Of a DNA stretch of 64,000 bases, positions 1,783-61,745 are shown one piece after another. The DNA is from an uncultured Planctomycetota bacterium (GTDB taxonomy: Bacteria > Planctomycetota > Phycisphaerae > SM23-33), in NCBI GenBank assembly GCA_903892515.1, contig CAITIS010000067.1:1347-65346 (forward strand), given 5' to 3'. Position 1 is the first letter of the stretch. Every line of letters starts with the position of its first letter. The notes below the pieces were generated by a model that searched no databases, was not told where the DNA came from, and saw only the letters and a program-made list of their open reading frames with translations. A program made the position numbers and the translations under genes.

Positions 1783-2097
1783 GTTCTTACTCCCCCGCCG
1801 CAATGTCAGCGTGGCGGGACGCCGGTTGATAAACGGCGGATTATAGAGTCCCGCCCCTTCGGCGACAAGGCCGGAACGGCAAAGGCAGGATTGGCAGGGA
1901 TGCAGTGGATACAAGGGATGATGACGCGAAGCACGCGGGCGTTGGACGTGATGGCCGATGCCTGGATCGCGATGAAGCCGTTTCTGGATTTTGCTCTCGA
2001 TGGGATGCATTGATGGCCGGGCGGGCACTTGAACGTTCTGCGAAGTTCTCTCTTTGCGTCCTTTGCGTTCTCTGCGGTTTGATGTTGTAATCCACCC

Positions 2098-3537
2098 ATG
2101 CCGACTACCCGGACTCCGCGCGTTGCCCTGGTGCATGACTGGCTGGTCGGCATGCGCGGTGGCGAGGCCGTTTTGGAGGAGCTTTGCCGGTTGTTCCCCC
2201 AGGCTGAAGTTTTCACGCTCTTTCATGGCCCCGGCTCGGTGAGTGAGACGATCGAGCGGCACCGGATTCACGCCAGTTGCCTCAATAGGACGCTGTTGCG
2301 CCGCCACTACCGCCACCTGCTGCCGCTGATGCCCTGGGCCATCGAGAAGATGGACGTCAGCGACTTTGACATTGTTATTGCGTCGAGCCACTGCGTCGCC
2401 CATGGCATCGGCGGCACCGGCCGGTTCGACCGCAAGCTCACCGATGAGCGGCCGGGGCAGCTGCGCATCAGCTATTGCCACACGCCCATGCGGTACGCGT
2501 GGTCGGCTACCGACGAGTACGCGCGCAGCGGGTTTCTCAGCGGCTTGGCGCTGCGGACAGTGGCGGGCTCGCTGCGAAAATGGGATCGTCGCGCTGCTCT
2601 GTCGGTGGATTTGTTCATCGCCAATAGTCAGAACGTCGCCGACAGGATTGGGCGATTCTATGGCCGGCCGGCGGATGTGCTGTACGCGCCGGTGGAGGCA
2701 GAGTACTTCTGCCCCGCCGACGTGGCACGCGAGGATTTCTACCTTGTCGTGGCCGCCAATGCCCCGTACAAACGCATCGATCAAGCCATCGCCGCCGCGC
2801 GACAACTTGGCCGGCGGCTGGTCATTGCCGGGCCGGGGTACAAGACCGGGGCACTAGGATGCGTTTCGCCGTGCCGCCCCTTCGGGGCTCATAACTCCAG
2901 CGAGCCTTACCGGGGGCTCACGCCCCCGGCTACAATCGTTCCGGCCCTTCGGGCCTCAGCGGGGCCTCGAACGCGTGACGATCTGCACTCCGCGTCGCCT
3001 CCAATCGAACGCCGAACGGAACGCGTAGGTGAATCCCAATCTGAACATGGCGTTGAATCCCAATCTGAGCGTGGAACTGAATCCCGATCAGAACGCGGAA
3101 TCAAATCCCGGTCAGAACATGAAATGCCACACCGGCATGAACCGGAGATTCTTGGCGCCGTGGCGCGCGGGCCGCTGCGGGAGCTGTACCGTTCCGCCCG
3201 GGCGGTGCTGATGCCTGGCGAGGAGGATTTCGGCATCGCCGCCGTCGAGGCCATGGGCTCCGGCTGTCCCGTCATCGCCTATGCTGCCGGCGGGGCCCTG
3301 GAAACCGTCCGCGACGTGCGGCAGAACGTGGCCAATCCCACCGGCCTGTTGTATAAGCGGCAGGACGTGGAGTCGCTGGCCGAGGCGATGCTCGAATTGG
3401 AAGGCCTGACCGACCGCTTCGTGCCCTCGCAGATGCACGAGTGGGCGCGGCGCTTCTCGCCTGAGCAATTCCGCGCCGGTTTCCAGCGGATCGTCGGGCC
3501 CCTGATGCAAGAACGAAATTGGACCTGTCCATGGTGA
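2098..3537 (+). CDS. Glycosyltransferase family 4 (GT-B) with a ~100-aa in-frame insertion in the C-terminal Rossmann domain
   Basis: N-terminal GT4 domain, then DFYLVVAANAPYKRIDQAIAAARQLGRRLVIAGPG ... EDFGIAAVEAMGSGCPVIAYAAGGALETV (E-x7-E-like GT4 motif). The insertion at ~2850-3140 carries a REP-like hairpin element plus a 24-bp x4 tandem repeat. Confidence 0.75.
   Translation: MPTTRTPRVALVHDWLVGMRGGEAVLEELCRLFPQAEVFTLFHGPGSVSETIERHRIHASCLNRTLLRRHYRHLLPLMPWAIEKMDVSDFDIVIASSHCVAHGIGGTGRFDRKLTDERPGQLRISYCHTPMRYAWSATDEYARSGFLSGLALRTVAGSLRKWDRRAALSVDLFIANSQNVADRIGRFYGRPADVLYAPVEAEYFCPADVAREDFYLVVAANAPYKRIDQAIAAARQLGRRLVIAGPGYKTGALGCVSPCRPFGAHNSSEPYRGLTPPATIVPALRASAGPRTRDDLHSASPPIERRTERVGESQSEHGVESQSERGTESRSERGIKSRSEHEMPHRHEPEILGAVARGPLRELYRSARAVLMPGEEDFGIAAVEAMGSGCPVIAYAAGGALETVRDVRQNVANPTGLLYKRQDVESLAEAMLELEGLTDRFVPSQMHEWARRFSPEQFRAGFQRIVGPLMQERNWTCPW
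2869..2957. repeat. GC-rich multi-hairpin repeat element (family 4) lying inside the GT4 coding sequence; second copy at 42962..43045
   Basis: Shares ...cgccccNtcggggctc...gggctcRcgcccNcggctacaatcgttccggcccttcgggcctc with 42962-43045 (~75% identity). Internal hairpins: gcccc-ttc-ggggc, ccggggg-ctcac-gcccccgg, ggccc-ttcg-ggcc. Confidence 0.6.
3007..3126 (+). repeat. 24-bp tandem repeat, 4 clear units plus one degenerate, encoding (E/K)S(Q/R)SE(H/R)G(V/T/I)-type octapeptides in-frame within GT4
   Basis: gaatcccaatctgaacatggcgtt / gaatcccaatctgagcgtggaact / gaatcccgatcagaacgcggaatc / aaatcccggtcagaacatgaaatg. Confidence 0.7.
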
Positions 3538-4847
3538 AGCAACATAGTCAATTGATGCGGGCCTTGCTGGGCCTGTGCGACCTGGCCGTGATGGCGGCGG
3601 CGGCGGCGGCGGCGTGCTGGCTGGCCGAGCGCGACGACGCGTTTCGCCGGCCGATGCTGACGCTGGGGGCGATTCTCACGCTGCTGATCTTCAGCCGGTG
3701 CGACCTGTACAGCCCGCGGCGCACGGCCGCCATCATCTGGGAATGGGTCGATGTCACGCGGGCCTGCGTCATCGTGGCGGTGCTGGCCGGGCTGGTGCTG
3801 TCGCTGCTGCTGCCGGACGTGCCGGTAGTGATCGCCCTGTTCCTGGTGATCTGGGTGCCGCTGGCGGTGCTCTTTCGCACGGCTGCGCGGATGATCCTGC
3901 GCCGGGCCCGCCGCCGCGGCTGGAACGCCCGTTCCGCCGCCATCGTCGGCGACGCCGCCAGCGCCGACCAACTCATGCAGGAACTCCAATCCAGCACGTG
4001 GACCGGCATCAACGTGATTTACCGCCTGGCGGACGAGCACCCGGCCATCGGCTCGATCGATCAACTCGGTTCGTGCCTGGCCCGCGAGCCGGTGGAGATG
4101 GTTTTCGTGGCCCTGTCATCGGCTCAGCAGCAGCGTCTGCAAGCGGTGCTGGCGGAGTTACAGAAGGTCACCACCGACATCCACATCGTGCCTGACTTGG
4201 TGCAGTACTCCTTTCTCCGCCGCCAGGTCAATCAGATCGGCTCGGTACCGACGATCTCGCTGACCCACAGCCCGCAAGAGGGCTTCCACGAGTTGCTCAA
4301 GCGCGGCATGGATGTGATCGGTTCGCTCATCGGCCTGCTGCTCTTTGGGCCGGCGATGATCGTGATTGCAGCGATGATCCGGCTCAAGGACGGCCCGGGC
4401 GTGCTGTTCGTGCAGCGGCGAAGTTCGCTGGGCGGGCGCGAGTTTCCGATGCTGAAGTTTCGCACCATGGCCGGGGCGGCCGGGGCGGAAAATGATGCCG
4501 ATGATCGGCGCGTGACCGCGTTGGGAAAGACGCTCAGGCGGTGGAGCTTGGACGAGCTGCCGCAGCTTCTCAACGTGCTGATCGGGCAGATGTCGCTGGT
4601 GGGCCCGCGGCCGGAGCGGCCAGAGCGGATCGCGGAACTGGCCCCGCAGATTTCGGACTACCTGCTGCGGCAGCACGTCAAGAGCGGCATGACCGGCTGG
4701 GCGCAGATCCACGGCCTGCGCGGGCCGTGCGACATGAGCCGGCGAGTCCAATACGACCTTTACTATATCATTCACTGGAGCATCGGCCTGGACCTGTGGG
4801 TCCTGGCATTGACGCTGCTGAAAGGGTTTTTCCATTCCGACGAATGA
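3519..4847 (+). CDS. Polyprenyl-phosphate glycosyl-1-phosphate transferase (WbaP/exopolysaccharide sugar transferase family)
   Basis: N-terminal TM helices. C-terminal bacterial sugar transferase domain: DVIGSLIGLLLFGPAMIVIAAMIRLKDGPGVLFVQRRSSLGGREFPMLKFRTM...DELPQLLNVLIGQMSLVGPRPERPE. Confidence 0.85.
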   Translation: MDLSMVKQHSQLMRALLGLCDLAVMAAAAAAACWLAERDDAFRRPMLTLGAILTLLIFSRCDLYSPRRTAAIIWEWVDVTRACVIVAVLAGLVLSLLLPDVPVVIALFLVIWVPLAVLFRTAARMILRRARRRGWNARSAAIVGDAASADQLMQELQSSTWTGINVIYRLADEHPAIGSIDQLGSCLAREPVEMVFVALSSAQQQRLQAVLAELQKVTTDIHIVPDLVQYSFLRRQVNQIGSVPTISLTHSPQEGFHELLKRGMDVIGSLIGLLLFGPAMIVIAAMIRLKDGPGVLFVQRRSSLGGREFPMLKFRTMAGAAGAENDADDRRVTALGKTLRRWSLDELPQLLNVLIGQMSLVGPRPERPERIAELAPQISDYLLRQHVKSGMTGWAQIHGLRGPCDMSRRVQYDLYYIIHWSIGLDLWVLALTLLKGFFHSDE

Positions 4848-4911: not shown

Positions 4912-6420
4912 GTGCTGGCGATCTGCCTGCTGGCTCGGCTGTACACGCTGGCCCACACGGATAACATCGCCGTGGACGGGGCCACGCTGCTGTCGATGGC
5001 GATGCGGCTGGCGCAATCGCCAACGGCGGCCATTCATGAATTTCCGCACCACCCGGGCTACCCCGCCCTGGTCGCGTTTGCTGCCAAAGCGGTCGGCGCC
5101 AGCGGGCCCGTTGAGTGGGCTCTAACGGGCCAGGTGGTGACCATTGTGCTAAGCCTACTGGCCGTGGGGTGCCTGTACGGCATCGCGGCATTGCTGTTTG
5201 ACCACTCGATCGCCCTGCTGTCGGCGCTGATGTTTGGCCTGTGCCCGGAGGTCGGGTATCTTTGCGCCGATGCCCTCTCGGACATTCCCGCGCTGGCCTG
5301 GGGGCTGCTCTCGCTGATGTTGGCGTTGTACGCGGTGCGCGACGACCGCCGGCCGAAACTCTTGCCCGTGATTCTTGGCGGCCTGGCCGGTGGCTTGGCC
5401 TATCTCACCCGGCCAGAGTACCTGCTATGCCCTGCCCTGGGCGTACTGGTGCTGCTGCTGGCGCCCAAGCGGAGTTTCCTGGCCCTCGGGCTGTACGTCG
5501 GTGTGTGCGCGGCGCTGTGCGGCCCTTATGCCATCGCCATCGGCGGCTTCACGAACAAGAAGGGTGTGCACGACTTCGTGCTGGCCCAATCCGCTGCGGC
5601 GACGCTGACAGCCGGCGTGGGCCATGACTTCTACCAGGTCTTCAAACGCTCGGCCCAGATCATCAGCGCCCCGCCGCTGGTCCTGCTGCACGTGTATGTG
5701 CTGGGCAGAATCGCCTCCCGGTTTTGGCCCGCTATCAAGACACAATTCGTGGCCTTGCAGCATCGTCGTTTGCAGTGGCTGCTGATAGCCCCCCTGCTGC
5801 TGATGACGCCGCTGCTGATGAGCCTGGAGGAACGCCGCGGGCCGGGCTACATCGACTCGCGGCACATGCTGCTGCCCTCGGCATTACTGTTCGTCTATGC
5901 CGCCCTGGGATTGGTGCTGCTCGTGGAGGTTCTATCAGCCCTGATGCAGCGGCTGCGGCGCGCCCCCGCCACCGGGGCCATCCTGGTAACGCTGCTGGTG
6001 ATCGTGATTGGCGCCAACATGCCGCGCGTGGTCAGGCCGTTGCAGGTGGGCAAGGCGATCTTTCGCCAGGCCGGTAGCAAGCTGCTGGCGGAATACGGGC
6101 CGGGACATTACGTGCTGAGTTCAGATAGCCGCGTGGCGTTCTTTGCGGCCAGCCCATTGCAGCAATTCACACACGGCACGGACATGCCTTCTCTTCTCCG
6201 GCCGGAGTATTTGAAGAGCGCCGAATCGCTACGCAGCGCGCTGGCCGAACGCCACGGCCGGCGCTACGAGTTCCTGGCCATCGCCCAGAATGTCATTACT
6301 GACGCCAGCACTCGCGGCCCGCTCGATGCCCTCGCCGGCCGGTTGATCCCCCTCTTCTCGGGCCAGTCGCCCGGCACGCGCCCACAGGCCGTCATGGTTT
6401 TTGAGATCAAGGCGGAGTGA
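4912..6420 (+). CDS. Polytopic membrane protein, possible GT-C (GT39/ArnT-like) glycosyltransferase
   Basis: At least 10 predicted hydrophobic helices and a C-terminal soluble domain. Sits in a GT4/WbaP glycosylation cluster. Family assignment is weak. Confidence 0.5.
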   Translation: MLAICLLARLYTLAHTDNIAVDGATLLSMAMRLAQSPTAAIHEFPHHPGYPALVAFAAKAVGASGPVEWALTGQVVTIVLSLLAVGCLYGIAALLFDHSIALLSALMFGLCPEVGYLCADALSDIPALAWGLLSLMLALYAVRDDRRPKLLPVILGGLAGGLAYLTRPEYLLCPALGVLVLLLAPKRSFLALGLYVGVCAALCGPYAIAIGGFTNKKGVHDFVLAQSAAATLTAGVGHDFYQVFKRSAQIISAPPLVLLHVYVLGRIASRFWPAIKTQFVALQHRRLQWLLIAPLLLMTPLLMSLEERRGPGYIDSRHMLLPSALLFVYAALGLVLLVEVLSALMQRLRRAPATGAILVTLLVIVIGANMPRVVRPLQVGKAIFRQAGSKLLAEYGPGHYVLSSDSRVAFFAASPLQQFTHGTDMPSLLRPEYLKSAESLRSALAERHGRRYEFLAIAQNVITDASTRGPLDALAGRLIPLFSGQSPGTRPQAVMVFEIKAE

Positions 6421-6499: not shown

Positions 6500-6790
6500 A
6501 TAAAGCGAGCGAAGTCGCGTTGCCTTAAGCCCGAAGGGCTTGGAGTCTAGCCCAGGGCAGAGCGAAGCGCCGCCCTGGGTTGGCAGGGATACATGTTAGC
6601 CCTGTAAGGGCGGGATAGCTCTGTCTCTGACGCCCTTTCAGGGCTTGCTTTTGTGACGCATGTTTACCTGGGGCGTTGCCCCAGGCTGTAGTCTCTCAGC
6701 CCTTCGGGCTGCATAGCCCAACGGTCCAGCGAGTCATCACAAATGCCTAATCATGCAAAAAGCCCGAGAGGCAGAGAAATCCCTACGTTG
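6500..6790. repeat. Dense array of GC-rich stem-loops (at least 6 hairpins with tetraloop-like loops) in a 370-bp intergenic region
   Basis: aagccc-gaag-ggctt; cccagggc-(13 nt)-gccctggg; gccct-gtaa-gggc; gccct-ttca-gggc; cctgggg-cgtt-gccccagg; cagccc-ttcg-ggctg. Confidence 0.55.
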
Positions 6791-6792
6791 GC

Positions 6793-7029
6793 TCACTCGA
6801 CCGGATCGTAGCCCTTGCCGCCCCAGGGATGGCAGCGCAGGATTCGCCAGAGCCCCTTGGCCGAACCACGGAGCGGGCCCTTCTTTTGCACCGCTTCGAT
6901 GAAGTATTCGCTGCACGTCGGCTGAAAACGGCACTGCCCGCCCAGAAACCGCGAGAGCGTCACTTGGTAGAATCGTACGATGGCGATTATCGCCCTGCCC
7001 GCGAAACTCGCGTGTGGCTCGCCGCTCAC
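6793..7029 (-). CDS. yidD: Membrane protein insertion efficiency factor YidD
   Basis: [64 protein letters not shown]. Confidence 0.85.
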
Positions 7030-7394
7030 GGCTTGGCTTCCTGCGCGCCGGCCCGGCTGAGTTTACGCAGCGACTGCTGCAATTCTTCCAGCACCGGCTC
7101 GTAGCCCAATTGCGGGCGCAGGACGTAATCGTAACCGGCAGGCAGTTCCGGGCGGGTTAAGCGGAAGGCTTCACGGCAGACGCGTTTAATGCGGTTGCGC
7201 TTAACGGCTGGGCCATGACGCACCGACACCAGCACGGCCATTCGGGAGCGTCCCAGGCCGTTGGCTATCATGTGCAGCCGAAGCCGGCGGTCGGAAACCA
7301 CCTTGCCCTGTCGGATACCTCGCGACAGGTCGCGCTCGCGATGGATGCGGTCGTTTTTCTTAAGGCCAAGGCGCAGAGGTCTCTCCATGTTCAC
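7026..7394 (-). CDS. rnpA: Ribonuclease P protein component
   Basis: Basic protein with [28 protein letters not shown]. Overlaps yidD by 4 nt (rnpA-yidD synteny). GTG start. Confidence 0.8.
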
Positions 7395-7489
7395 CGGCGC
7401 ATTCTACGTCGGAGGGAGGGAAATGAGAAGTCATCGTACACTTGGTGCTTGACGGAAAGGTCCACCTTCCATACAAGTAATGTAATTCC

Positions 7490-9398: not shown

Positions 9399-9439
9399 CT
9401 TCGTTTCCAGGGATGAGTTTCTAGAACCGATATGCCTTC

Positions 9440-9480
9440 GTGGCACAGCCGCCCTCGGCTGTGGATGTGGCGGTCATATC
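9440..9480 (+). repeat. REP-like palindromic element (family 1): GTGGCACAGCCG-CCCT-CGGCTGTGG plus conserved 3' flank
   Basis: 8-9 bp stem, 4-nt loop. Same 25-mer at 43089-43113 (+) and 17839-17863 (inverted). Extended flank conserved: aTGTgGCGGtCAtAT versus cTGTtGCGGcCAcAT. Confidence 0.75.
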
Positions 9481-11610: not shown

Positions 11611-14130
11611 TCAGTCGTCTCTACTGCCCGATGATCGGCCGCTTCCCGTGCCCGTCCCGCCGCCTGCTGCGGATGACCCCAGTGCCGTTGCGATGGCCTG
11701 GGCCTGGGTCGAAGTCAGCGAGATGCCCCTCATGGCCGATACGCTGCTGATGGCCGAAGTGATCTGCGACGCGCTGCTTCCGCGCACGCTCGATGACGCC
11801 AGAGCACGGTGACAGGAGGCACAGGTGCTCGCATACAGGCTGGCACCGTCAGTGGTTGTTGTTCCGCCGCCAGTGGTGCCGCCGCCAGTCGTTCCGCCAC
11901 CCGTGCTGGACGTTCCCAGTGCGGTTGCGATGGCCTGGACTTGCGCCGCGGTCAGCGAGGAAAGGCTCCTCATGCCCGAGACGCTGCTGATGGCCGAAGT
12001 GATCTGCGACGCTGTGCGCCCACGCTTGGCGGAGGAAGCCAGCGCCCCGTGACAAGAGGCACAATCACTGGCATACAGCGTGGCCCCGTCGGTGGTTGTC
12101 GTCCCGCCACCAGTGGTCCCGCCGCCCGTGCCGGACGTTCCCAGCGCCGTGGCGATGGCTTGGATTTGCGTCGCGGTCAGCGTCGAAAGGCTCCTCATGC
12201 CCGAGACGCTGCTGATGGCCGAAGTGATCTGCGACGCCGTGCGCCCACGCTTGGCGGAGGAAGCCAGCGCCCCGTGACAAGAGGCACAATCACTGGCATA
12301 CAGCGTGGCCCCGTCGGTGGTTGTCGTTCCGCCACCAGTGGTGCCGCCGCCGGTCGTCCCACTGACGCCAGTGTGGGGTGGCATCTGGCCTACACGTCCG
12401 TCGGTGTGACACACCTGGCAGTGGTTCTGCCCCAGTGGCCGATTCGTGCCCTGTAGCGCCATGACCTGCTGATTGTCAACGGCCTGCATCGAAGGATACC
12501 ACGAGTGCGGGCTGTTGTGGCAGGCCGCACAGTGCAGACCGCCGTGCCCGGTGGCCTGGCGGAAGAGTTGCGTGCCCGTGTCGAACTGGCTGCCGTGGCA
12601 CTGAGAGCACTTGGGCTCTTGCAGCCACGCTTGCCGGCCATTCTTCAGGCCCGTGGCCATAGCCGTCAGATCGCCGTGACAGGTATCGCACTTGGGATCG
12701 GTGCCCACCGGCCCCATGCCCGGCAGAGTGCTGCGGTTGCACTGGGTCTTGGCGCCGGGATGACAATCGTAGCAGGCCGGCTGGACCGCGATGGTGCTGT
12801 GCTTGTCGTGCATCGACTGCGATAGCGACGGCACGCCGGTCATGCCAGCCATCTTCAGGGCGTTGTCCTGGTGGCACTTGGAGCACAGCACAGGCCGGCT
12901 GGCCATGAGCGTGGTGCCGTGGGTACGGTCGTGCAGGGTCAGGATGTTCGACTCCACCGTCCCGTTGAGCCCCACTGCTGCCACCGCGCCGGGGGCGTGG
13001 CACTTCTGGCAGTTCATCTCATCGGAGGTGGGAATAACAACCTTGGCCGTGTTGCCGGCGCTGAGTTTGACCGTGGCCACCTGCAATGGATTCCACACCT
13101 TCTGATCGTTGTACGGTGTAATGGGAATTCCGCTGGCCTCGAAGATGCCGCCGGCGATCGGCACGGCCGAGCCGCTGAGCTTGTTGCCCGTCAGGCCCGT
13201 GTCCGGCGCCAGGGCCACGCCAAAGAGCTGCTGGGCGTAAGTCCAGAAGTCAATCTTGTTCGAGGACGTGGTGTTGCCGTCGATGGAATAGGTAACCGTT
13301 ACTCCGCTGGTGATCACCTGCGGCTCGGCCGCCCGCCCGATGACCTGCACATGGAGGTCATTGTACGGCGGCAGAACGCATAGTTCGGCCGAGCGAGAGC
13401 TGAAGCAGTGCATGCCCAGGTCATTCCAGCCGATCATCATGTACGTGCCTGCGGCACCGGTGCTGCCAGTGCCACCTTCGCCGTCATCACTCCCGCTCGT
13501 CGTCCCGCCCGTGCCTGTGCCGCCAGTACCTGTGCTGGCCGTGCCCAAGGCCGTGGCAATAGCTTGGATTTGCGTGGAAGTCAGCGAAAGGTTCCTCATG
13601 GCCGAGATGCTGCTGATGGCCGAAGTGATCTGCGAGGCGGTGCGCCCGCGTTTGGAAGAGGAGGCAATCGCGCCGTGACACGAGGCGCAATCGCTGGCAT
13701 AGAGCGTGGCCCCGTCCGTGGCGGTGGTTCCGCCGCCGGTAGTGCCGCCACCAGTGGTCGTTCCGCCCCCCGTGGTTCCGCCGCCGGTCGTCGTGCCGGA
13801 CGTGCCCAAGGCCGTGGCAATGGCCTGGACTTGCGTGGAGGTCAGCGATGAAAGCCCGCGCATGCCCGAGACGCTGCTGATGGCCGAAGTGATCTGGGAG
13901 GCGCTGCGCCCGCGCTTCGAGGAGGACGCCAGGGCCCCGTGACAAGAGGCACAATCGCTGGCGTACAATGTCGCCCCGTCCGTGGCCGTGGCTCCACCCC
14001 CAGTCGTCCCCCCGCTCTGCTGGGCCGATGCCGTACACGGCCAGCCGATCACCGACCATCCCGCCAGCGCCATCAGCGCCAGCAACATCATCGTTGTCCT
14101 TCTGTTCATGACAATTGCCTTTCCATGCAT
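11611..14130 (-). CDS. Modular multiheme cytochrome c: 12 CxxCH motifs arranged as 2 mono-haem class-I cyt c modules, a 7-haem core, then 3 mono-haem modules, joined by Gly/Thr linkers
   Basis: Signal peptide MNRRTTMMLLALMALAGWSVIGWP (probable true start at 14109). Repeated module DGATLYASDCASCHGALASSSKRGRSASQITSAISSVSGMRGLS.LTSTQ.QAIATALG x5. Core contains CQKCH, CSKCH, CYDCH, CDTCH, CSQCH, CAACH, CQVCH. Confidence 0.8.
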   Translation of the reverse strand: MHGKAIVMNRRTTMMLLALMALAGWSVIGWPCTASAQQSGGTTGGGATATDGATLYASDCASCHGALASSSKRGRSASQITSAISSVSGMRGLSSLTSTQVQAIATALGTSGTTTGGGTTGGGTTTGGGTTGGGTTATDGATLYASDCASCHGAIASSSKRGRTASQITSAISSISAMRNLSLTSTQIQAIATALGTASTGTGGTGTGGTTSGSDDGEGGTGSTGAAGTYMMIGWNDLGMHCFSSRSAELCVLPPYNDLHVQVIGRAAEPQVITSGVTVTYSIDGNTTSSNKIDFWTYAQQLFGVALAPDTGLTGNKLSGSAVPIAGGIFEASGIPITPYNDQKVWNPLQVATVKLSAGNTAKVVIPTSDEMNCQKCHAPGAVAAVGLNGTVESNILTLHDRTHGTTLMASRPVLCSKCHQDNALKMAGMTGVPSLSQSMHDKHSTIAVQPACYDCHPGAKTQCNRSTLPGMGPVGTDPKCDTCHGDLTAMATGLKNGRQAWLQEPKCSQCHGSQFDTGTQLFRQATGHGGLHCAACHNSPHSWYPSMQAVDNQQVMALQGTNRPLGQNHCQVCHTDGRVGQMPPHTGVSGTTGGGTTGGGTTTTDGATLYASDCASCHGALASSAKRGRTASQITSAISSVSGMRSLSTLTATQIQAIATALGTSGTGGGTTGGGTTTTDGATLYASDCASCHGALASSAKRGRTASQITSAISSVSGMRSLSSLTAAQVQAIATALGTSSTGGGTTGGGTTGGGTTTTDGASLYASTCASCHRALASSSVRGSSASQITSAISSVSAMRGISLTSTQAQAIATALGSSAAGGGTGTGSGRSSGSRDD

Positions 14131-14795: not shown

Positions 14796-15944
14796 GTGAG
14801 TTTACAGGACAATGCATTCATGCTCCAGGCCCTGGAGTTGGCGGCAATGGGCCGCGGCGCGGTCGAACCCAACCCGATGGTCGGCGCTGTCATCGTCAGA
14901 GATGGCGCCGTGCTGGGTGAGGGGTTCCATCACCGTTTCGGCGGGCCGCACGCGGAAGTCGAAGCCATCGCCGACGCTCGCCGGGCCGGGCATAACCTGG
15001 CCGGGGCCACCATGTACGTTACGCTGGAGCCCTGCTGCCATTACGGCAAGACGCCGCCCTGCACGCAGGCGGTCATCGCCTCGGGCGTCACCCGCGTGGT
15101 CGTGGCCATGCAGGATCCCGACGAGCGCGTGAGTGGCCAGGGCCTGGCTGAATTGCGCTCCGCCGGCATCGAGGTGGTCGCGGGCGTGCAGGAACAATCG
15201 GCCTGGCGACTGCTGGGGGCCTACATCAAGTTGCGGACAAAGCGTCGCCCCTGGGTCATCTGCAAGTGGGCCCAAAGCCTGGACGGCAAGATCGCCCCCG
15301 CCAGCCGACAGAGCAAGTGGATCACCGGCGAACTGGCCCGAGCGAGAGCCCATCAACTCCGCAGCCAGTGCCAGGGCGTATGCGTCGGTGTGGGAACCGT
15401 CCTGGCCGACGATCCCCTGCTGACCAACCGCAGCGGCGCAGGCCGACAGCCGACGCGGCTGGTGCTAGACGCAAGGCTGCGAACGCCGAGCGAGTCTCAA
15501 CTTCTCCGCACTGCCGGCGAAGTGCCCCTGATCGTGGCCACGGGCCCAGGGGCTTCGCCGGCCCAGGCCGACGCCATCCAACGCGCCGGTGGTGAGGTGC
15601 TAAGACTAAATGAGCAGGCCGGCGAACTTGACCTAGGACAGCTTCTGGATGAACTGGGCCGCCGGCAGTGGACGCGTCTGCTTGTCGAAGGCGGCCAGGC
15701 TGTGCTGCGGTCATTCTTGCGGCAGCAGTTGGCGGATGAACTGGCCATCTTCATTGCCCCGTGCATGATCGGTTCTGACGGGCTGAGCGTCATGGACTGG
15801 CTTCACGCCGAGCAGATGTCGCAGGCACTCCGCCTGCCGCTTGCGGAGACCGAACGACTGGGACCCGACCTGCTGCTGCGATTCCGGTTGGATGTAATTA
15901 GCAGGGATACATGGGATGCACGGGATGAAGAGATTTGTGATTGA
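14796..15944 (+). CDS. ribD: Bifunctional riboflavin biosynthesis protein RibD (pyrimidine deaminase / reductase)
   Basis: CDA zinc motif HAEVEAI...PCCHYGKTPPC. C-terminal RibD_C reductase domain. Confidence 0.9.
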   Translation: MSLQDNAFMLQALELAAMGRGAVEPNPMVGAVIVRDGAVLGEGFHHRFGGPHAEVEAIADARRAGHNLAGATMYVTLEPCCHYGKTPPCTQAVIASGVTRVVVAMQDPDERVSGQGLAELRSAGIEVVAGVQEQSAWRLLGAYIKLRTKRRPWVICKWAQSLDGKIAPASRQSKWITGELARARAHQLRSQCQGVCVGVGTVLADDPLLTNRSGAGRQPTRLVLDARLRTPSESQLLRTAGEVPLIVATGPGASPAQADAIQRAGGEVLRLNEQAGELDLGQLLDELGRRQWTRLLVEGGQAVLRSFLRQQLADELAIFIAPCMIGSDGLSVMDWLHAEQMSQALRLPLAETERLGPDLLLRFRLDVISRDTWDARDEEICD

Positions 15945-17821: not shown

Positions 17822-17838
17822 GCACGATGTCGCGAAAT

Positions 17839-17863
17839 CCACAGCCGAGGGCGGCTGTGCCAC
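17839..17863 (-). repeat. REP family-1 copy (inverted orientation)
   Basis: ccacagccgagggcggctgtgccac is the exact reverse complement of the 25-mer at 9440 and 43089. Confidence 0.75.
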
Positions 17864-17898
17864 GGGAACCACGGGACAAGCCGGTCATGAAACCGGTT

Positions 17899-39932: not shown

Positions 39933-41354
39933 ATGACCATCACAGGGAATGTCTGCGCGCCCAGCGAGCTATCGAGCACGCTGCTGGAACTCGTGCAGAA
40001 AAAGATAGGTGTCCAGAAGTTTGAAGCCTGGTTCAAGCACGGCGCGAGCGTGAAGTTGGAAGAAAATTGCGTAAAGATCGGCGCACCGAATCCATTCGTG
40101 GCCGGATGGATTGAAAGCCACTTCGCCGACGTCATTATCGACGCGGCGCAGGAGATCGCAGGCCAGCGCCCACGCCTCGTCATCAACGTGGACCCCGTGC
40201 TCTCAGGCAGCCTGCGCAAACGCCAACTCGACGCCCAGGCCAGGCTGGTCAGCCGCTCAACCAGCGGCCAGGCTCGTCATTCCGGCCCGGCCCCGACCCG
40301 CCAGCGGCTGCGGTACACGCTTAAGGATTTCATTGTCGGGCCGTGCAACCAGTTGGCCTTCACCGCCGCCGAAACGGTCGCCAAGACCGGCAAGGGCCCG
40401 TTTAACCCGCTGTTTATTCACGGCACGTGCGGCGTGGGCAAGACACACCTGCTTCAGGGCATCTGCAACGGCGTGGCGTCGCTGACGCAGGAAGGCAAGG
40501 ACCTGAACTGGAAGTACACCACGGCCGAGCAGTTCACCAACGAGTTTGTCAACGCCATCCGCACGAAGAAGCTCGAGACCTTCCGCCGCTCGTATCGCGA
40601 CCTGGATGTTCTGGTGATCGACGACGTGCACTTCCTCTCGGGCAAGAAGGCCACGCAGGAGGAATTCCTGCACACCTTCAACAGCATCGACGCCGCCGGC
40701 AGGCAGGTCATCATGGCCTCGGATGCCCATCCGCGTATGGTCGGCCAGTTGGCTGAGCAGCTGGTCAGCCGGTTCCTGTCGGGCATGGTTGTAAAGATCG
40801 AAACCCCCGACCGCGCCACGCGCCTGACGATCCTGCAGAAATTCGCCGCCCGGCTGAATCTGAATTGCCCGCTGGAGGTGCTGGAATACGTGGCCGACCA
40901 GATTCGCGGCTCGGTCCGCGAGCTGGAGGGCGCGCTGGTCAAGCTTTCGGCCTTGATGCAACTGACGCACCGCCAGGGCAGTCTCGACCTGGCGCGAGAA
41001 GCGCTGGCCGAGCACCTGTCCCACACGGGCAGTGCGACCAGCCTGGGCGAGATCGAGGCCGTAGTGTCGTCATTCTTCGGCATCACTCCGGCGGACATCC
41101 ACTCGACGCGGCGGACGCACACAATCAGCTTGGCCAGGTCGCTGGCCATGTACCTGGCCCGTCGGCGGACGCACATGAGCTATCCCGAGATCGGGCGGTT
41201 CATGGGCAAGAATCACTCCTCGGCGGTACTGGCCGTGCAGAAGCTGGAGCGGCTGGCCAAAGACAACAAGCCTTGCCGCTGGATGTCGGCAGCGGGGCCC
41301 AAAGAAATGCCGATTCGCAGTATGCTGGAATTGCTGACCGAACAGGTTGGCTAA
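39933..41354 (+). CDS. dnaA: Chromosomal replication initiator protein DnaA
   Basis: AAA+ Walker A GTCGVGKTHLLQ. Box VII. C-terminal DNA-binding HTH (SYPEIGRFMGKNHSSAVLAVQK). Confidence 0.9.
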   Translation: MTITGNVCAPSELSSTLLELVQKKIGVQKFEAWFKHGASVKLEENCVKIGAPNPFVAGWIESHFADVIIDAAQEIAGQRPRLVINVDPVLSGSLRKRQLDAQARLVSRSTSGQARHSGPAPTRQRLRYTLKDFIVGPCNQLAFTAAETVAKTGKGPFNPLFIHGTCGVGKTHLLQGICNGVASLTQEGKDLNWKYTTAEQFTNEFVNAIRTKKLETFRRSYRDLDVLVIDDVHFLSGKKATQEEFLHTFNSIDAAGRQVIMASDAHPRMVGQLAEQLVSRFLSGMVVKIETPDRATRLTILQKFAARLNLNCPLEVLEYVADQIRGSVRELEGALVKLSALMQLTHRQGSLDLAREALAEHLSHTGSATSLGEIEAVVSSFFGITPADIHSTRRTHTISLARSLAMYLARRRTHMSYPEIGRFMGKNHSSAVLAVQKLERLAKDNKPCRWMSAAGPKEMPIRSMLELLTEQVG

Positions 41355-42840: not shown

Positions 42841-42960
42841 TACGAAATTCAGACCCGAAGGGTCGGTACTACTGTAGCCGGGGGGCGTAAGCCCCCGGTG
42901 TGCATGGGCTTGTGCCTGAGCCCCGAAGGGGCGACACAGTTGGCTTGCCCAACAACTCTG
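42841..42960. repeat. GC-rich hairpin array (at least 4 stem-loops) preceding the family-4 and family-1 repeat copies
   Basis: gaccc-gaa-gggtc; ccggggg-gcgtaag-cccccgg; gcccc-gaa-ggggc; gcccc-gtc-ggggc. Confidence 0.5.
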
Positions 42961-42961
42961 T

Positions 42962-43045
42962 CGCCCCGTCGGGGCTCTGTGCCACTGGGGCGGTCTCCGT
43001 GGGCTCGCGCCCACGGCTACAATCGTTCCGGCCCTCCGGGCCTCC
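42962..43045. repeat. Family-4 hairpin element (intergenic copy; paralogue of the copy inside GT4 at 2869-2957)
   Basis: Shared 3' block ggctacaatcgttccggccctYcgggcctc. ccgtgggc-tcgc-gcccacgg. Confidence 0.6.
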
Positions 43046-43088
43046 AATCCAGTCGCAATGCCAAGACTCCATTCGTGCGGTTTGCCCC

Positions 43089-43130
43089 GTGGCACAGCCG
43101 CCCTCGGCTGTGGCTGTTGCGGCCACATCG
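43089..43130 (+). repeat. REP family-1 copy
   Basis: gtggcacagccgccctcggctgtgg plus conserved flank ctgttgcggccacat. Confidence 0.75.
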
Positions 43131-49693: not shown

Positions 49694-49717
49694 GCGGACT
49701 TATGTACGTTCCGGATG

Positions 49718-49766
49718 GTGGAACAGGCCTTCAGCCTGTTCGGCACAGCCTAAAAGGCTGTGCCAC
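49718..49766 (+). repeat. Twin-hairpin REP-like element (family 2), copy 1
   Basis: gtggaacaggc-cttca-gcctgttc + ggcacagcc-taaaa-ggctgtgcc + acc. Confidence 0.7.
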
Positions 49767-49795
49767 CGCCAAAGACTTATGTAGGGCCGCTTAGA

Positions 49796-56836: not shown

Positions 56837-56946
56837 TTTAGCAGGGATGCTGGGGATACAGGGGATGAAGGCATTTCGGTTCAACGCATGTACGGAACTG
56901 CATTTATAAAGCAATGTCTTTATCCCATGCATCCCCAGCATCCCTG
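56837..56946. repeat. 20-bp perfect inverted repeat (ttagcagggatgctggggat ... atccccagcatccctgctaa) flanking a ~70-bp AT-richer core, between nth (+) and the VOC gene (-)
   Basis: Observed directly. Could be a long-stem terminator or a MITE-like element. Confidence 0.5.
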
Positions 56947-56953
56947 CTAACAC

Positions 56954-60246: not shown

Positions 60247-60341
60247 ATCGCGTGGCCGCTGGACGCCGCGGCCACGGCACCCGGCGTCACGTGGTGGCAC
60301 AGCCTTTCAGGCTGTGCCGCACAGGCTAAAAGCCTGTGCCA
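60247..60341 (+). repeat. Composite repeat: family-3 hairpin (60247-60280) directly followed by a family-2 twin hairpin (60292-60341)
   Basis: cgcgtggccgctggacgccgcggccacggcaccc ... gtggcacagcc-tttca-ggctgtgcc + gcacaggc-taaaa-gcctgtgc + cacc. Confidence 0.7.
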
Positions 60342-60389
60342 CCTCACCCAGAAACTACAAAAGTTTCCTTAGCTGGACCGCGAGTTCGT

Positions 60390-61745
60390 TCACTCCGCCT
60401 GCACGGGTTCGACCACGAGATCGTAGTCGCGGATATCCACGACGCGGGCGCGGATGATCGTGCCGACCTCAGCGGGCTCGGTGATGTGGCAGATGCCATC
60501 GACCTCCGGCGCCTGGCCAGCGTGCCGGCCGGTGCCCAAACCTTCACCTTGGTCAGGGTCAGGCTGTGACTCCACCAGCACGTCCAGCTCGGTGTCCATG
60601 CGGGCCCAGTTCAGGTCGAAGGCCACCTTCTGCTGTTCGCGCATGAGCTTGTCGCGGCGGCGCTGGCTGATCCTGATGGGAATCTGGTTGGGCAGCCGGG
60701 CCGCCGGCGTGCCGGGCTCAGCGGAGTACGGGAAGACCCCCACCGCGTCGAAGCGTGCGGTCTTGACGAACTCCATAAGCTGATCGTAATCGGCGATGGC
60801 CTCGCCGGGAAAACCCGCGATGAAGGTTGTGCGAATGATGATGCCGGGCATGGCTCGCCGCAGCCGCGCGAGCAAGTCCACCACCCTCTGGCCGTTGTAG
60901 TGCCGGTTCATGCGGGTCAGAATCTTGTCGGAGATATGCTGCAGCGGGATGTCCAGGTACTTCACCACCCGCTCGCACTCGGACATGGCGGCAACCATTT
61001 CGTCGGTCATGGTGGCGGGGTTGGCGTACATGACGCGAATCCACCGCACCGACTCGATCTCGTTGAGCTTGCGCAGCAGCACGGCCAGGTTCGTGCCCTC
61101 GCTGCCGGGGGCGGCTGTGCCACGGTCGGTGAGGTCTTGGCCGTAGGCCGAGGTGTCCTGGCCGATCAGGTTCAGTTCGATGGCACCGTCGGCGGCCAGT
61201 TCCTTGGCTTCTTCCAGTACGTCCGGCAGCGGCTTGGAACGCAGCGGCCCACGGATCGACGGGATCGTGCAATAGCTGCACCCGGAGCTGCACCCCTCGC
61301 TGATGCGGAGATAGGCCATGTGCCGCGGGGTCAGGCGCAAGCGGCCGCGGTCGTCCTGGCAGCCTTGGTGGTCCTTGGTGACGCCGCTGCGGAGCTTGCC
61401 CATCACGGCCGGTACGATCTTGTCGCGGTCGAAGACGCCCACGATGGCGTCGATGCCCGGCTCGGCCTTGAGCAGCTCATCGGCCTGCTTCTGGGCCAGG
61501 CAGCCGGCCACCACCACGCGTTGGACGCGGAACTTCTTCTTGGCCCGCACGGCCTCACGAATGGCCTGCATCGACTCTTCGCGGGCCGACTCGATGAACG
61601 CGCAGGTGTTCACCAGCACCACGTCGGCCTGCTTGAGCGGGGCGCCAATGACGCACCCGGCCTCGGCCAGCAGCCCCAGCAACTTCTCGCTGTCCACAAG
61701 GTTCTTGGGGCAGCCCAACGACATAACCGCAATTCGTAAAGACAT
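60390..61745 (-). CDS. rimO: Ribosomal protein S12 methylthiotransferase
   Basis: MTTase N-terminal domain (MSLGCPKNLVDSE). Radical SAM CSSGCSYC. C-terminal TRAM domain. Confidence 0.9.
   Translation of the reverse strand: MSLRIAVMSLGCPKNLVDSEKLLGLLAEAGCVIGAPLKQADVVLVNTCAFIESAREESMQAIREAVRAKKKFRVQRVVVAGCLAQKQADELLKAEPGIDAIVGVFDRDKIVPAVMGKLRSGVTKDHQGCQDDRGRLRLTPRHMAYLRISEGCSSGCSYCTIPSIRGPLRSKPLPDVLEEAKELAADGAIELNLIGQDTSAYGQDLTDRGTAAPGSEGTNLAVLLRKLNEIESVRWIRVMYANPATMTDEMVAAMSECERVVKYLDIPLQHISDKILTRMNRHYNGQRVVDLLARLRRAMPGIIIRTTFIAGFPGEAIADYDQLMEFVKTARFDAVGVFPYSAEPGTPAARLPNQIPIRISQRRRDKLMREQQKVAFDLNWARMDTELDVLVESQPDPDQGEGLGTGRHAGQAPEVDGICHITEPAEVGTIIRARVVDIRDYDLVVEPVQAE

Follow-up and report, generated by a model that had tools for sequence, protein, structure and literature searches.

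We analyzed a stretch of 64,000 nucleotides from an uncultured planctomycete (GenBank assembly GCA_903892515.1, contig CAITIS010000067.1, positions 1,347 to 65,346; hereafter, the window), in which a gene for a glycosyltransferase of family GT4 contains an in-frame insert that is absent from its aligned homologues. Part of this insert is a hairpin element whose core matches the Acido-Lenti-1 motif (Rfam RF01687). In this report, we provide evidence that the element is probably one end of a mobile repeat of the repetitive extragenic palindrome (REP) type that was inserted in frame and is translated as a tolerated loop of the enzyme. Retrieved loci and proteins are cited by our L and P numbers. 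The features of the gene, an open reading frame (ORF), are as follows.

2098-3537, plus strand: ORF of 479 aa for a GT4 (GT-B fold) glycosyltransferase (ORF list, Pfam, Foldseek, and synteny).
2870-3133 (limits approximate within ~9 nt), plus strand: lineage-specific in-frame insertion of ~264 nt (~88 aa), defined by the homologue alignment.
2867-2961, plus strand: three-hairpin element of putative REP type, a single "end" copy (covariance model R1, 93 bits, E = 7e-23).
2876-2888, plus strand: hairpin 1 (GCCCC-TTC-GGGGC), outside the Rfam model and transposase-proximal in the REPtron copies described below.
2910-2956, plus strand: Acido-Lenti-1 motif (RF01687; cmscan, 44.5 bits, E = 8e-7 for the whole window).
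2910-2929, plus strand: hairpin 2, with the 8-bp stem CCGGGGGC/GCCCCCGG.
2943-2955, plus strand: hairpin 3 (GGCCC-TTC-GGGCC).
2962-3011, plus strand: spacer outside the repeat family (the flanks of the element copies fail to align).
3012-3118, plus strand: 24-bp tandem array, 4.5 copies, encoding E-S-[QR]-S-E-[HR]-G-x octapeptides (TRF, period 24, 74% matches).

Assignment of the ORF to the GT4 class is based on its two Rossmann-like domains, the presence of both Pfam domains, and the conserved C-terminal catalytic residues. The fold of the predicted structure agrees with those of MshA, PglA, BshA, and PimA in a Foldseek comparison. Alignment of the query with 17 homologues, each 360-412 aa, indicates that the protein keeps the conserved EEDFG segment and every family-invariant residue. 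Glyco_transf_4 is found at aa 20-199. The match to Glycos_transf_1 covers aa 350-435 only, which corresponds to profile positions 76-156 of 172, and therefore the insert interrupts the C-terminal domain. An earlier note on this DNA, made from the sequence alone, had claimed that the reading frame stays open for 479 aa across an in-frame insert, and the ORF list and the split domain bear this out.

A search of 5.8 billion proteins with the GT4 sequence yielded 7,781 homologues. Among the best 120 of these, the closest is 58-59% identical, and nearly all are 351-412 aa long, the exceptions being two 591-aa fusions with a Bac_transf domain; sources that are named in this set are mostly metagenome-assembled genomes of Planctomycetota or Phycisphaerae. 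In the alignment, the insert (roughly aa 258-345) is present in the query alone and in none of the 17 homologues, including three syntenic orthologues (P0002 from L006/L007, P0008 from L008, and P0006 from L010). On its N-terminal side is the conserved IIGxGP...LRRxA segment, and on its C-terminal side is the NVExLGW strand. The comparison with orthologues that had been suggested as a check thus favors an insertion. A second, small lineage-specific insertion of 10 aa was observed in the same protein at residues 107-116 (~2416-2445, the TGRFDRKLTDE region), without counterpart in any of the aligned homologues and with a predicted local distance difference test score (pLDDT) of <50.

In its architecture, the insert comprises the 95-nt three-hairpin element (2867-2961), a unique spacer, and the 24-bp tandem array, with the repeat family accounting for 95 of the ~264 nt. 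Its length is divisible by three, and the reading frame in use is the sole stop-free one of six. G+C content at third codon positions (GC3) is 0.52 in the insert and 0.41 in the spacer plus array, as against 0.79 and 0.82 in the native parts of the gene, which points to a non-native origin of the whole insert. The translated insert is rich in Ser, Arg, Glu, and Pro (for example, ESQSEHGVESQSER). Because searches of 5.8 billion proteins and of 1.84 billion cluster representatives with the insert peptide found no homologue, we conclude that the insert is not a protein domain. An intron or intein was also considered and rejected, because there is no such signal (the Rfam scan finds RF01687 only) and the frame is simply read through. 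Riboswitch and terminator-type RNA families were dismissed on the same scan, and a promoter and terminator scan of positions 2000-3700 found nothing relevant in or beside the insert.

Neither the spacer nor the 24-bp unit has a match elsewhere in the window or in any fetched locus. Four clear in-frame units are located at 3031 (ESQSEHGV), 3055 (ESQSERGT), 3079 (ESRSERGI), and 3103 (KSRSEHEM). The four units counted previously therefore exist, but a degenerate fifth at 3008-3031 brings the array to ~4.5-5 copies. Pairwise, the units are 62-79% identical, with the frame still intact; by codon position, 2, 4, and 6 of 8 sites are variable, a trend that is not significant (p = 0.19). We rejected the possibility that the array is part of the hairpin element, because the unit is missing elsewhere in the window, the flanks of the element copies cannot be aligned, and no fetched locus contains a match. 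An origin of the array by slippage promoted by the stable hairpins is plausible. Locus L008 carries a 24-bp array of three copies (5908-5978, 87% matches) close to a REP copy, ~30 nt away on its distal side. It shows no sequence similarity to the array of the GT4 insert, and its position may reflect coincidence or hairpin-promoted slippage.

Structure modeling, also suggested previously, is consistent with a flexible loop. In the AlphaFold2 model, both Rossmann-like (GT-B) domains have pLDDT values mostly >90, whereas residues 251-343 have values of ~30, adopt no secondary structure, and are predicted to be disordered. The insert spans the connection between the strand at 240-244 and the strand at 350-353.

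NCBI and ENA have records of this 479-aa protein, with exactly the same sequence, on two contigs from two assemblies. Moreover, three contigs of other samples (L013, L014, and L015) match the window at 100% identity for 2.0-2.1 kb, a stretch that contains the complete array. With the sequence recovered in at least five assemblies, the insert is not an assembly artifact. In window coordinates, the three contigs start at 2840, 2909, and 2930. The second and third of these starts fall within the hairpin element, as expected of dispersed repeats, which break assemblies; breakage at the element likewise explains a separate record (P0122) of the C-terminal 125 aa. Array length does not vary among the assemblies retrieved, all of which are 100% identical. 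One of the contigs, L013, matches the window to position 4981 and then (L013:2143-2590) enters a DHDPS gene instead of the PMT_2-like gene found in the window, reflecting either a structural variant or a chimeric contig.

When scanned with Rfam at gathering thresholds, the window yields only two matches, both to RF01687 (threshold, 37 bits): the one in the GT4 gene at 2910-2956 (44.5 bits) and one at 42997-43043 (37.6 bits). An inverted copy at 42851-42898 scores 32.6 bits, under the threshold. In this clade, the conserved unit is ~95 nt long and consists of the RF01687 core and an extra 5' hairpin, with flanks that are unconserved beyond it. Covariance model R1, which was built from eight copies of the element, found two window copies not used in its building, at 6522-6620 (minus strand, 41.5 bits) and 6623-6716 (plus strand, 52.3 bits). 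The window thus carries five copies, of which the four intergenic ones form two doublets.

6522-6716: head-to-head inverted doublet, intergenic, between the PMT_2-like gene and yidD/rnpA (6522-6620 minus strand, 6623-6716 plus strand; R1).
42846-43048: head-to-head inverted doublet, intergenic, downstream of the ArsP permease gene (42846-42941 minus strand, 42954-43048 plus strand; R1 and RF01687).

The hairpin element had been described as paralogous to an intergenic copy, and we agree: a 30-mer is common to 2928-2957 and 43015-43044 with one mismatch, and 0.00 such matches are expected (100 shuffles). The copies at 42846-42941, 6522-6620, and 6623-6716 are additional to those listed at that time.

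Evidence for the secondary structure comes from 24 copies of the element at nine loci. In total, 99.3% of the cells are standard pairs, and in 9 of the 18 pairs both partners have changed (39 cells). Helix 2 is 100% paired, with four double-change pairs, and helix 3 is 99.2% paired, with three. None of 500 shuffles reaches the observed values, and slid controls do not come near them. Covariation beyond these controls indicates that the three hairpins are under selection, as RNA or as single-stranded DNA. The element also has the structure expected of RF01687, namely 8-bp and 5-bp hairpins with covariation and a conserved GCUA-containing linker. This linker (CTACAATCGTTC) joins hairpins 2 and 3, and a GTAG tag on its reverse complement abuts the stem. 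When folded alone, the 95-nt element has a free energy of -43.6 kcal/mol (z = -2.58); for the whole 156-nt region, z is -1.39, which is uninformative against the GC-rich background.

The arrangement of the copies is that of a REP-type repeat. GGCTAC is invariant in the eight-copy alignment; its reverse complement, GTAGCC, places a GTAG tag directly at the 8-bp palindrome, and this strand reads ...ATTGTAG followed by CCGGGGGC-GTGA-GCCCCCGG. The tag differs by lineage and copy, being GTAG here, TTAG in L010, and CAG in the copy at 6623. Doublets, which include four of the five window copies in head-to-head orientation, are situated downstream of genes or between convergent genes. Further doublets occur in L008 (6008-6207) and L006 (13366-13569).

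In relatives, the element is associated with a transposase gene. Locus L010 contains, at 6999-7439, a 146-aa Y1_Tnp gene (PF01797, E = 9e-25) with the HUH motif HLH and the tyrosine motif YIRNQ. A minus-strand copy of the element ends 5 nt before its start codon, a plus-strand copy starts 6 nt after its stop codon, and three additional copies follow. We retrieved four further transposase homologues, all in different genomic contexts, and inverted copies of the element flank the Y1 gene in all five loci (L010, L016, L017/L018, L019/L020, and L021-L024), with the minus-strand copy ~5-15 nt before the start codon and the plus-strand copy 0-6 nt after the stop codon. The coordinates of the Y1 genes with their inverted copies are as follows.

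L010: 6870-8106.
L016: 636-1282.
L017: 2687-3639.
L019: 2892-3539.
L021: 2877-3539.

Extra clustered or head-to-tail copies were seen in L010 and L017. The layout of these loci is the one known from publications as a REPtron or TIRtron. Many homologues of the Y1 protein are named "REP element-mobilizing transposase RayT" by JGI, and NCBI names them IS200/IS605 family transposases. A scan of a genome collection with CGGCTACARTNGTNCCGNCCCT gave four matches in unrelated taxa, about the number estimated for chance, and a metagenome scan with a longer pattern gave one true match, L005.

Given the GTAG tag with its palindrome on the reverse strand, the inverted doublets, and the Y1 genes flanked in five of five loci, the proposal that the element is of REP type holds up well. 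As judged from its sequence context, the family that contains Acido-Lenti-1 behaves as a mobile repeat of the REP or REPIN (REP doublet forming hairpin) type; the GT4 copy is a single end, and the intergenic doublets look like the transposase unit without its gene. A classic DDE-type miniature inverted-repeat transposable element was rejected, because on inspection direct repeats were not seen at the borders of the GT4 copy or of the doublets, and the sequences adjoining different copies cannot be aligned. Insertion without target duplication is expected of Y1/HUH elements (IS200/IS605).

The GT4 ORF is the first gene of a conserved GT4/Bac_transf/PMT_2-like cluster that is syntenic with L006, L008, and L010. 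In the window, it is followed by two genes.

3519-4847: CoA_binding_3/Bac_transf gene, next after GT4.
4912-6420: gene for a PMT_2-like membrane protein, third in the cluster.

The same order (a CoA_binding_3/Bac_transf gene, and then a PMT_2-like membrane protein) is found downstream of each of the three orthologues P0002, P0008, and P0006, and in the window, as in the orthologous operons, the GT4 stop codon and the start of the next gene overlap. Compared with P0002, the N-terminal half of the GT4 protein is 58% identical and the C-terminal half is 59% identical, whereas the neighboring proteins are 53% (Bac_transf) and 35% (PMT_2-like) identical to their L006 orthologues. A doublet lies just downstream of the PMT_2-like gene both in the window (6522-6716) and in L008 (6008-6207), but none is present there in L010 or L006. 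The window and L008 proteins are ~35-58% identical, and the common position reflects either an insertion that is old or a hot spot for such events.

A second in-frame case occurs in the same cluster. In L006 (and the same in L007), a complete 204-nt doublet at 13366-13569 lies within the PMT_2-like gene (L006 12566-14482) and is read through. It is missing from the 62%-identical L010 orthologue, as well as from the L008 and window orthologues. In both this gene and the GT4 gene, the repeat is in frame, is missing in orthologues, and occupies a fold-compatible site, which are characteristics of the in-frame palindromic elements of Rickettsia discussed later. Because the L006/L007 case stands beside the GT4 case, in-frame residence of this element family is recurrent.

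We consider it probable that one end of a REP/REPIN-type mobile repeat inserted in frame in the GT4 gene and is translated as a tolerated loop. In this scheme, the hairpin element would be one end of a non-autonomous repeat whose core is RF01687. The autonomous form in this planctomycete clade would consist of a gene for a ~146-aa HUH/Y1 (IS200/RayT-like) protein between two inverted 95-nt modules, and gene-less inverted doublets and single ends would be scattered over the genome. One such end, accompanied by ~170 nt of non-native DNA (the spacer and the array), would have entered the GT4 gene where beta-strands 2 and 3 of the C-terminal Rossmann domain are connected, presumably after mobilization by a Y1 transposase. 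Because the insert has a length divisible by three and a stop-free frame, GT4 would still be read through, with the insert translated as an ~88-aa disordered loop. Several components of this scheme are directly supported by the data above: membership of the element in its family, the covarying hairpins, the inverted doublets, and the association with a transposase in relatives, on the one hand; and the lack of the insert in orthologues, the uninterrupted frame, the predicted disorder, the non-native composition, and the conserved remainder of the gene, on the other.

With regard to the protein, the insert is rather likely to be a tolerated disordered loop. The enzyme most probably tolerates the insert, and we infer that the protein is still active. 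The earlier note had offered a tolerated loop created by exaptation; the in-frame insert and the predicted disordered loop fit the first part of this idea, but nothing indicates an acquired function, so exaptation is unproven, and tolerance is all that the data support.

Several observations weigh against the scheme. A Pfam scan of ~48 ORFs found no Y1 transposase gene in the window, and therefore the link with the transposase rests on relatives. The best matches of the Y1 protein in the PDB are the TnpA proteins of ISDra2 and IS608, and no Escherichia coli RAYT structure is among the matches. Sequence comparisons of the remaining ~169 nt of the insert (spacer and array) reveal no relation to the repeat family. 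The short crossover helix expected from homologues is not modeled in the query, and activity may therefore be impaired. With the closest orthologue only 58% identical, the insertion is undatable and its exact target site undefined. Finally, the non-native GC3 suggests that the insert is young, in which case the conserved remainder of the gene may reflect a short time rather than selection.

These last points bear most directly on a pseudogene, which the earlier note had also raised and which we regard as unlikely. Under this explanation, a recent insertion would have inactivated the GT4 enzyme, and only lack of time would account for the open ORF in a genome with 63% G+C. The intergenic-like composition of the insert suggests a recent arrival, the crossover helix between core beta-strands is replaced or displaced with 93 residues left unstructured, and the assemblies are clonal at 100% identity and so provide no population signal of selection (dN/dS or presence/absence). 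However, the length of the insert is a multiple of three, and the gene uses the only stop-free frame of six. The array units have diverged to 62-79% identity without a break of the frame, albeit with no significant codon-position trend (p = 0.19). In addition, the family-invariant residues are all kept, and the two halves of the protein have diverged from the orthologue no more than its neighbors have (58-59% identity versus 53% and 35%). The overlap of the GT4 stop with the downstream start is as in the orthologous operons, and a comparable in-frame insertion is found in L006.

It is still less probable that the embedded Acido-Lenti-1 motif acts as an RNA, either as a regulatory or stability element of the mRNA or as a processed small RNA, and has been selected within the gene for this role. 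Rfam classes RF01687 as a small RNA, and the motif was rated a probable RNA on the basis of covariation (Weinberg et al. 2010, PMC2864571). The GT4 copy is in the mRNA sense orientation, and five G-U cells would be C-A mismatches on the other strand; REPs elsewhere have been reported as transcribed elements (PMC3733652). Covariation is, however, equally expected for single-stranded DNA hairpins recognized by HUH enzymes. The copies, which are found in either orientation as inverted doublets, lie on both sides of a transposase gene in five of five loci, no terminator-like or promoter-like signal lies in or beside the insert, and orthologous GT4 genes do without the element.

A tandem array in a surface-polysaccharide gene is a classic setting of a contingency locus, and the earlier note had mentioned phase or length variation. 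The 24-bp array would then vary in copy number and modulate or switch the enzyme, and a second 24-bp array does lie beside a REP doublet in L008. We find this very improbable. A unit that is a multiple of three keeps the frame and makes frame switching impossible, units with 62-79% identity are a poor substrate for slippage, and the L008 array has no similarity to that of GT4. The array is the same in the window and in the three contigs of other samples, and a further assembly has the identical 479-aa protein.

That the segment is a native lineage-specific linker with a chance likeness to the repeat, or an assembly chimera, is effectively refuted: loop lengths do vary in GT4 proteins, as the 10-aa insertion at aa 107-116 illustrates, but the R1 match (93 bits, E = 7e-23), the independent Rfam model (E = 8e-7), the chance expectation of 0.00 for the 30-mer, and recovery in at least five assemblies are all inconsistent with it.

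Other repeats and genes were noted in the window. The hisS gene has intergenic tandem repeats of 9 bp on either side, at 446-472 and 2052-2076 (TTCTCTGCG and CTTTGCGTC); the latter sits immediately 5' of the GT4 start codon. A second, unrelated hairpin family, of the GTGGCACAGCCGCCCTCGGCTGTGG type, is intergenic at 9439-9472, 17831-17866, 43086-43121, and 61099-61126, and one of its copies directly adjoins the doublet at 42846-43048. A GGGAT(A/G)C-motif family (TTAGCAGGGATGC...) is found at 1891-1929, 6580-6618, 15898-15936, and 56838-56950, where it forms an inverted pair; one copy straddles the junction of the doublet at 6522-6716. A 51-nt double-hairpin repeat (GGTGGCACAGCC...GGCTGTGCCACC) occurs at 49717-49767 and 60293-60343, in inverted orientation, 10.5 kb apart, and with 90% complementarity. 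The ORF at 11611-14130 (minus strand, 839 aa) encodes a multihaem cytochrome c with five internal repeats of 215-225 bp that are 62-93% identical and correspond to haem-binding modules. A dnaA gene is located at 39933-41354, and the window may therefore adjoin a replication origin.

Viewed against known GT4 enzymes (MshA, PglA, BshA, and PimA), the protein is alike in its Pfam domains, its predicted fold, the EEDFG segment, and the invariant residues, and it is unlike them in having ~88 extra residues, predicted to be disordered, between strands 2 and 3 of the C-terminal Rossmann domain. A practical consequence of the insert is that assemblies break at the element, and gene callers then give only the C-terminal 125 aa of GT4.

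Acido-Lenti-1 was reported as a probable noncoding RNA of Acidobacteria and Lentisphaerae, with 89 representatives and unknown function (Weinberg et al. 2010, PMC2864571). The RF01687 seed alignment includes two copies from a planctomycete record (NC_005027) and many that are closely spaced in Lentisphaera; Koribacter versatilis and Lentisphaera araneosa are among the sources of its sequences. The element described here resembles this motif in its above-threshold match, its 8-bp stem with a 4-nt loop, its GCUA linker, and its 5-bp stem with a 3-nt loop. It differs in that Rfam and the original paper treat the motif as a candidate trans-acting small RNA, whereas here an extra 5' hairpin, inverted doublets, flanking of Y1 genes, and copies in two coding genes are observed. 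This genomic organization argues for a repeat acting at the level of DNA, rather than for a trans-acting RNA. Such a link of Acido-Lenti-1 with a Y1-transposase REPtron was not found in the few publications that mention the motif, and drawing it in Planctomycetota is the added value of this analysis. The annotation of RF01687 matches should change accordingly, to inverted ends of a Y1 element at least in this clade, and the transposase and its substrate hairpin form a testable pair for the biochemistry of HUH enzymes. More tentatively, RF01687 might be mainly the terminal hairpin module of a RayT/IS200-like Y1 REPtron across the Planctomycetes-Verrucomicrobia-Chlamydiae (PVC) group and Acidobacteria, not a trans-acting RNA, with gene-less copies that repeatedly enter coding sequences in frame (in two lineages, two different genes of the one envelope-polysaccharide cluster) and supply disordered linkers.

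GTAG REPs, REPINs, and REPtrons or TIRtrons are mobilized by RAYT/TIRYT Y1 transposases (Bertels and Rainey 2011, PMC3116915; Di Nocera et al. 2013, PMC3733652). In-frame intragenic GTAG REPs are most abundant in the PVC bacterium Opitutus terrae, where they encode 20-82 residues and are thought to occupy flexible linkers or loops (PMC3733652). Like these repeats, the present element has a GTAG tag at a short palindrome, dimer spacers within the published 20-100 bp, copies located 3' of genes or in convergent intergenic regions, a Y1/HUH gene with inverted flanks, and intragenic in-frame copies. Unlike them, it has ends that each combine three hairpins in 95 nt instead of a single palindrome of 20-40 bp, which is nearer to a "TIRtron"; the tag varies by lineage, the transposase is IS200-sized at 146 aa, and mobilization of the present element is putative.

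A further parallel is provided by the Rickettsia palindromic elements (RPEs) of Ogata et al. (2000), as described in PMC10969869. According to that account, RPEs are palindromic repeats found in frame in unrelated housekeeping genes and are translated into additional stretches of peptide that were considered compatible with protein fold and function. They encode their own conserved peptide, and in one genome almost half of the 44 copies are within ORFs. With intragenic REPs and RPEs, the principle of in-frame selfish repeats is already known and is unsurprising here; what the present locus adds is a well-documented in-frame hairpin repeat in a conserved enzyme of a poorly studied uncultured planctomycete lineage, with a second independent case in the same cluster. 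Compared with RPEs, the element has no sequence relationship, only two intragenic cases are found here, and the GT4 insert also holds unrelated DNA and an array. What the two share is the in-frame residence of palindromic selfish repeats, a likeness of behavior and not of homology.

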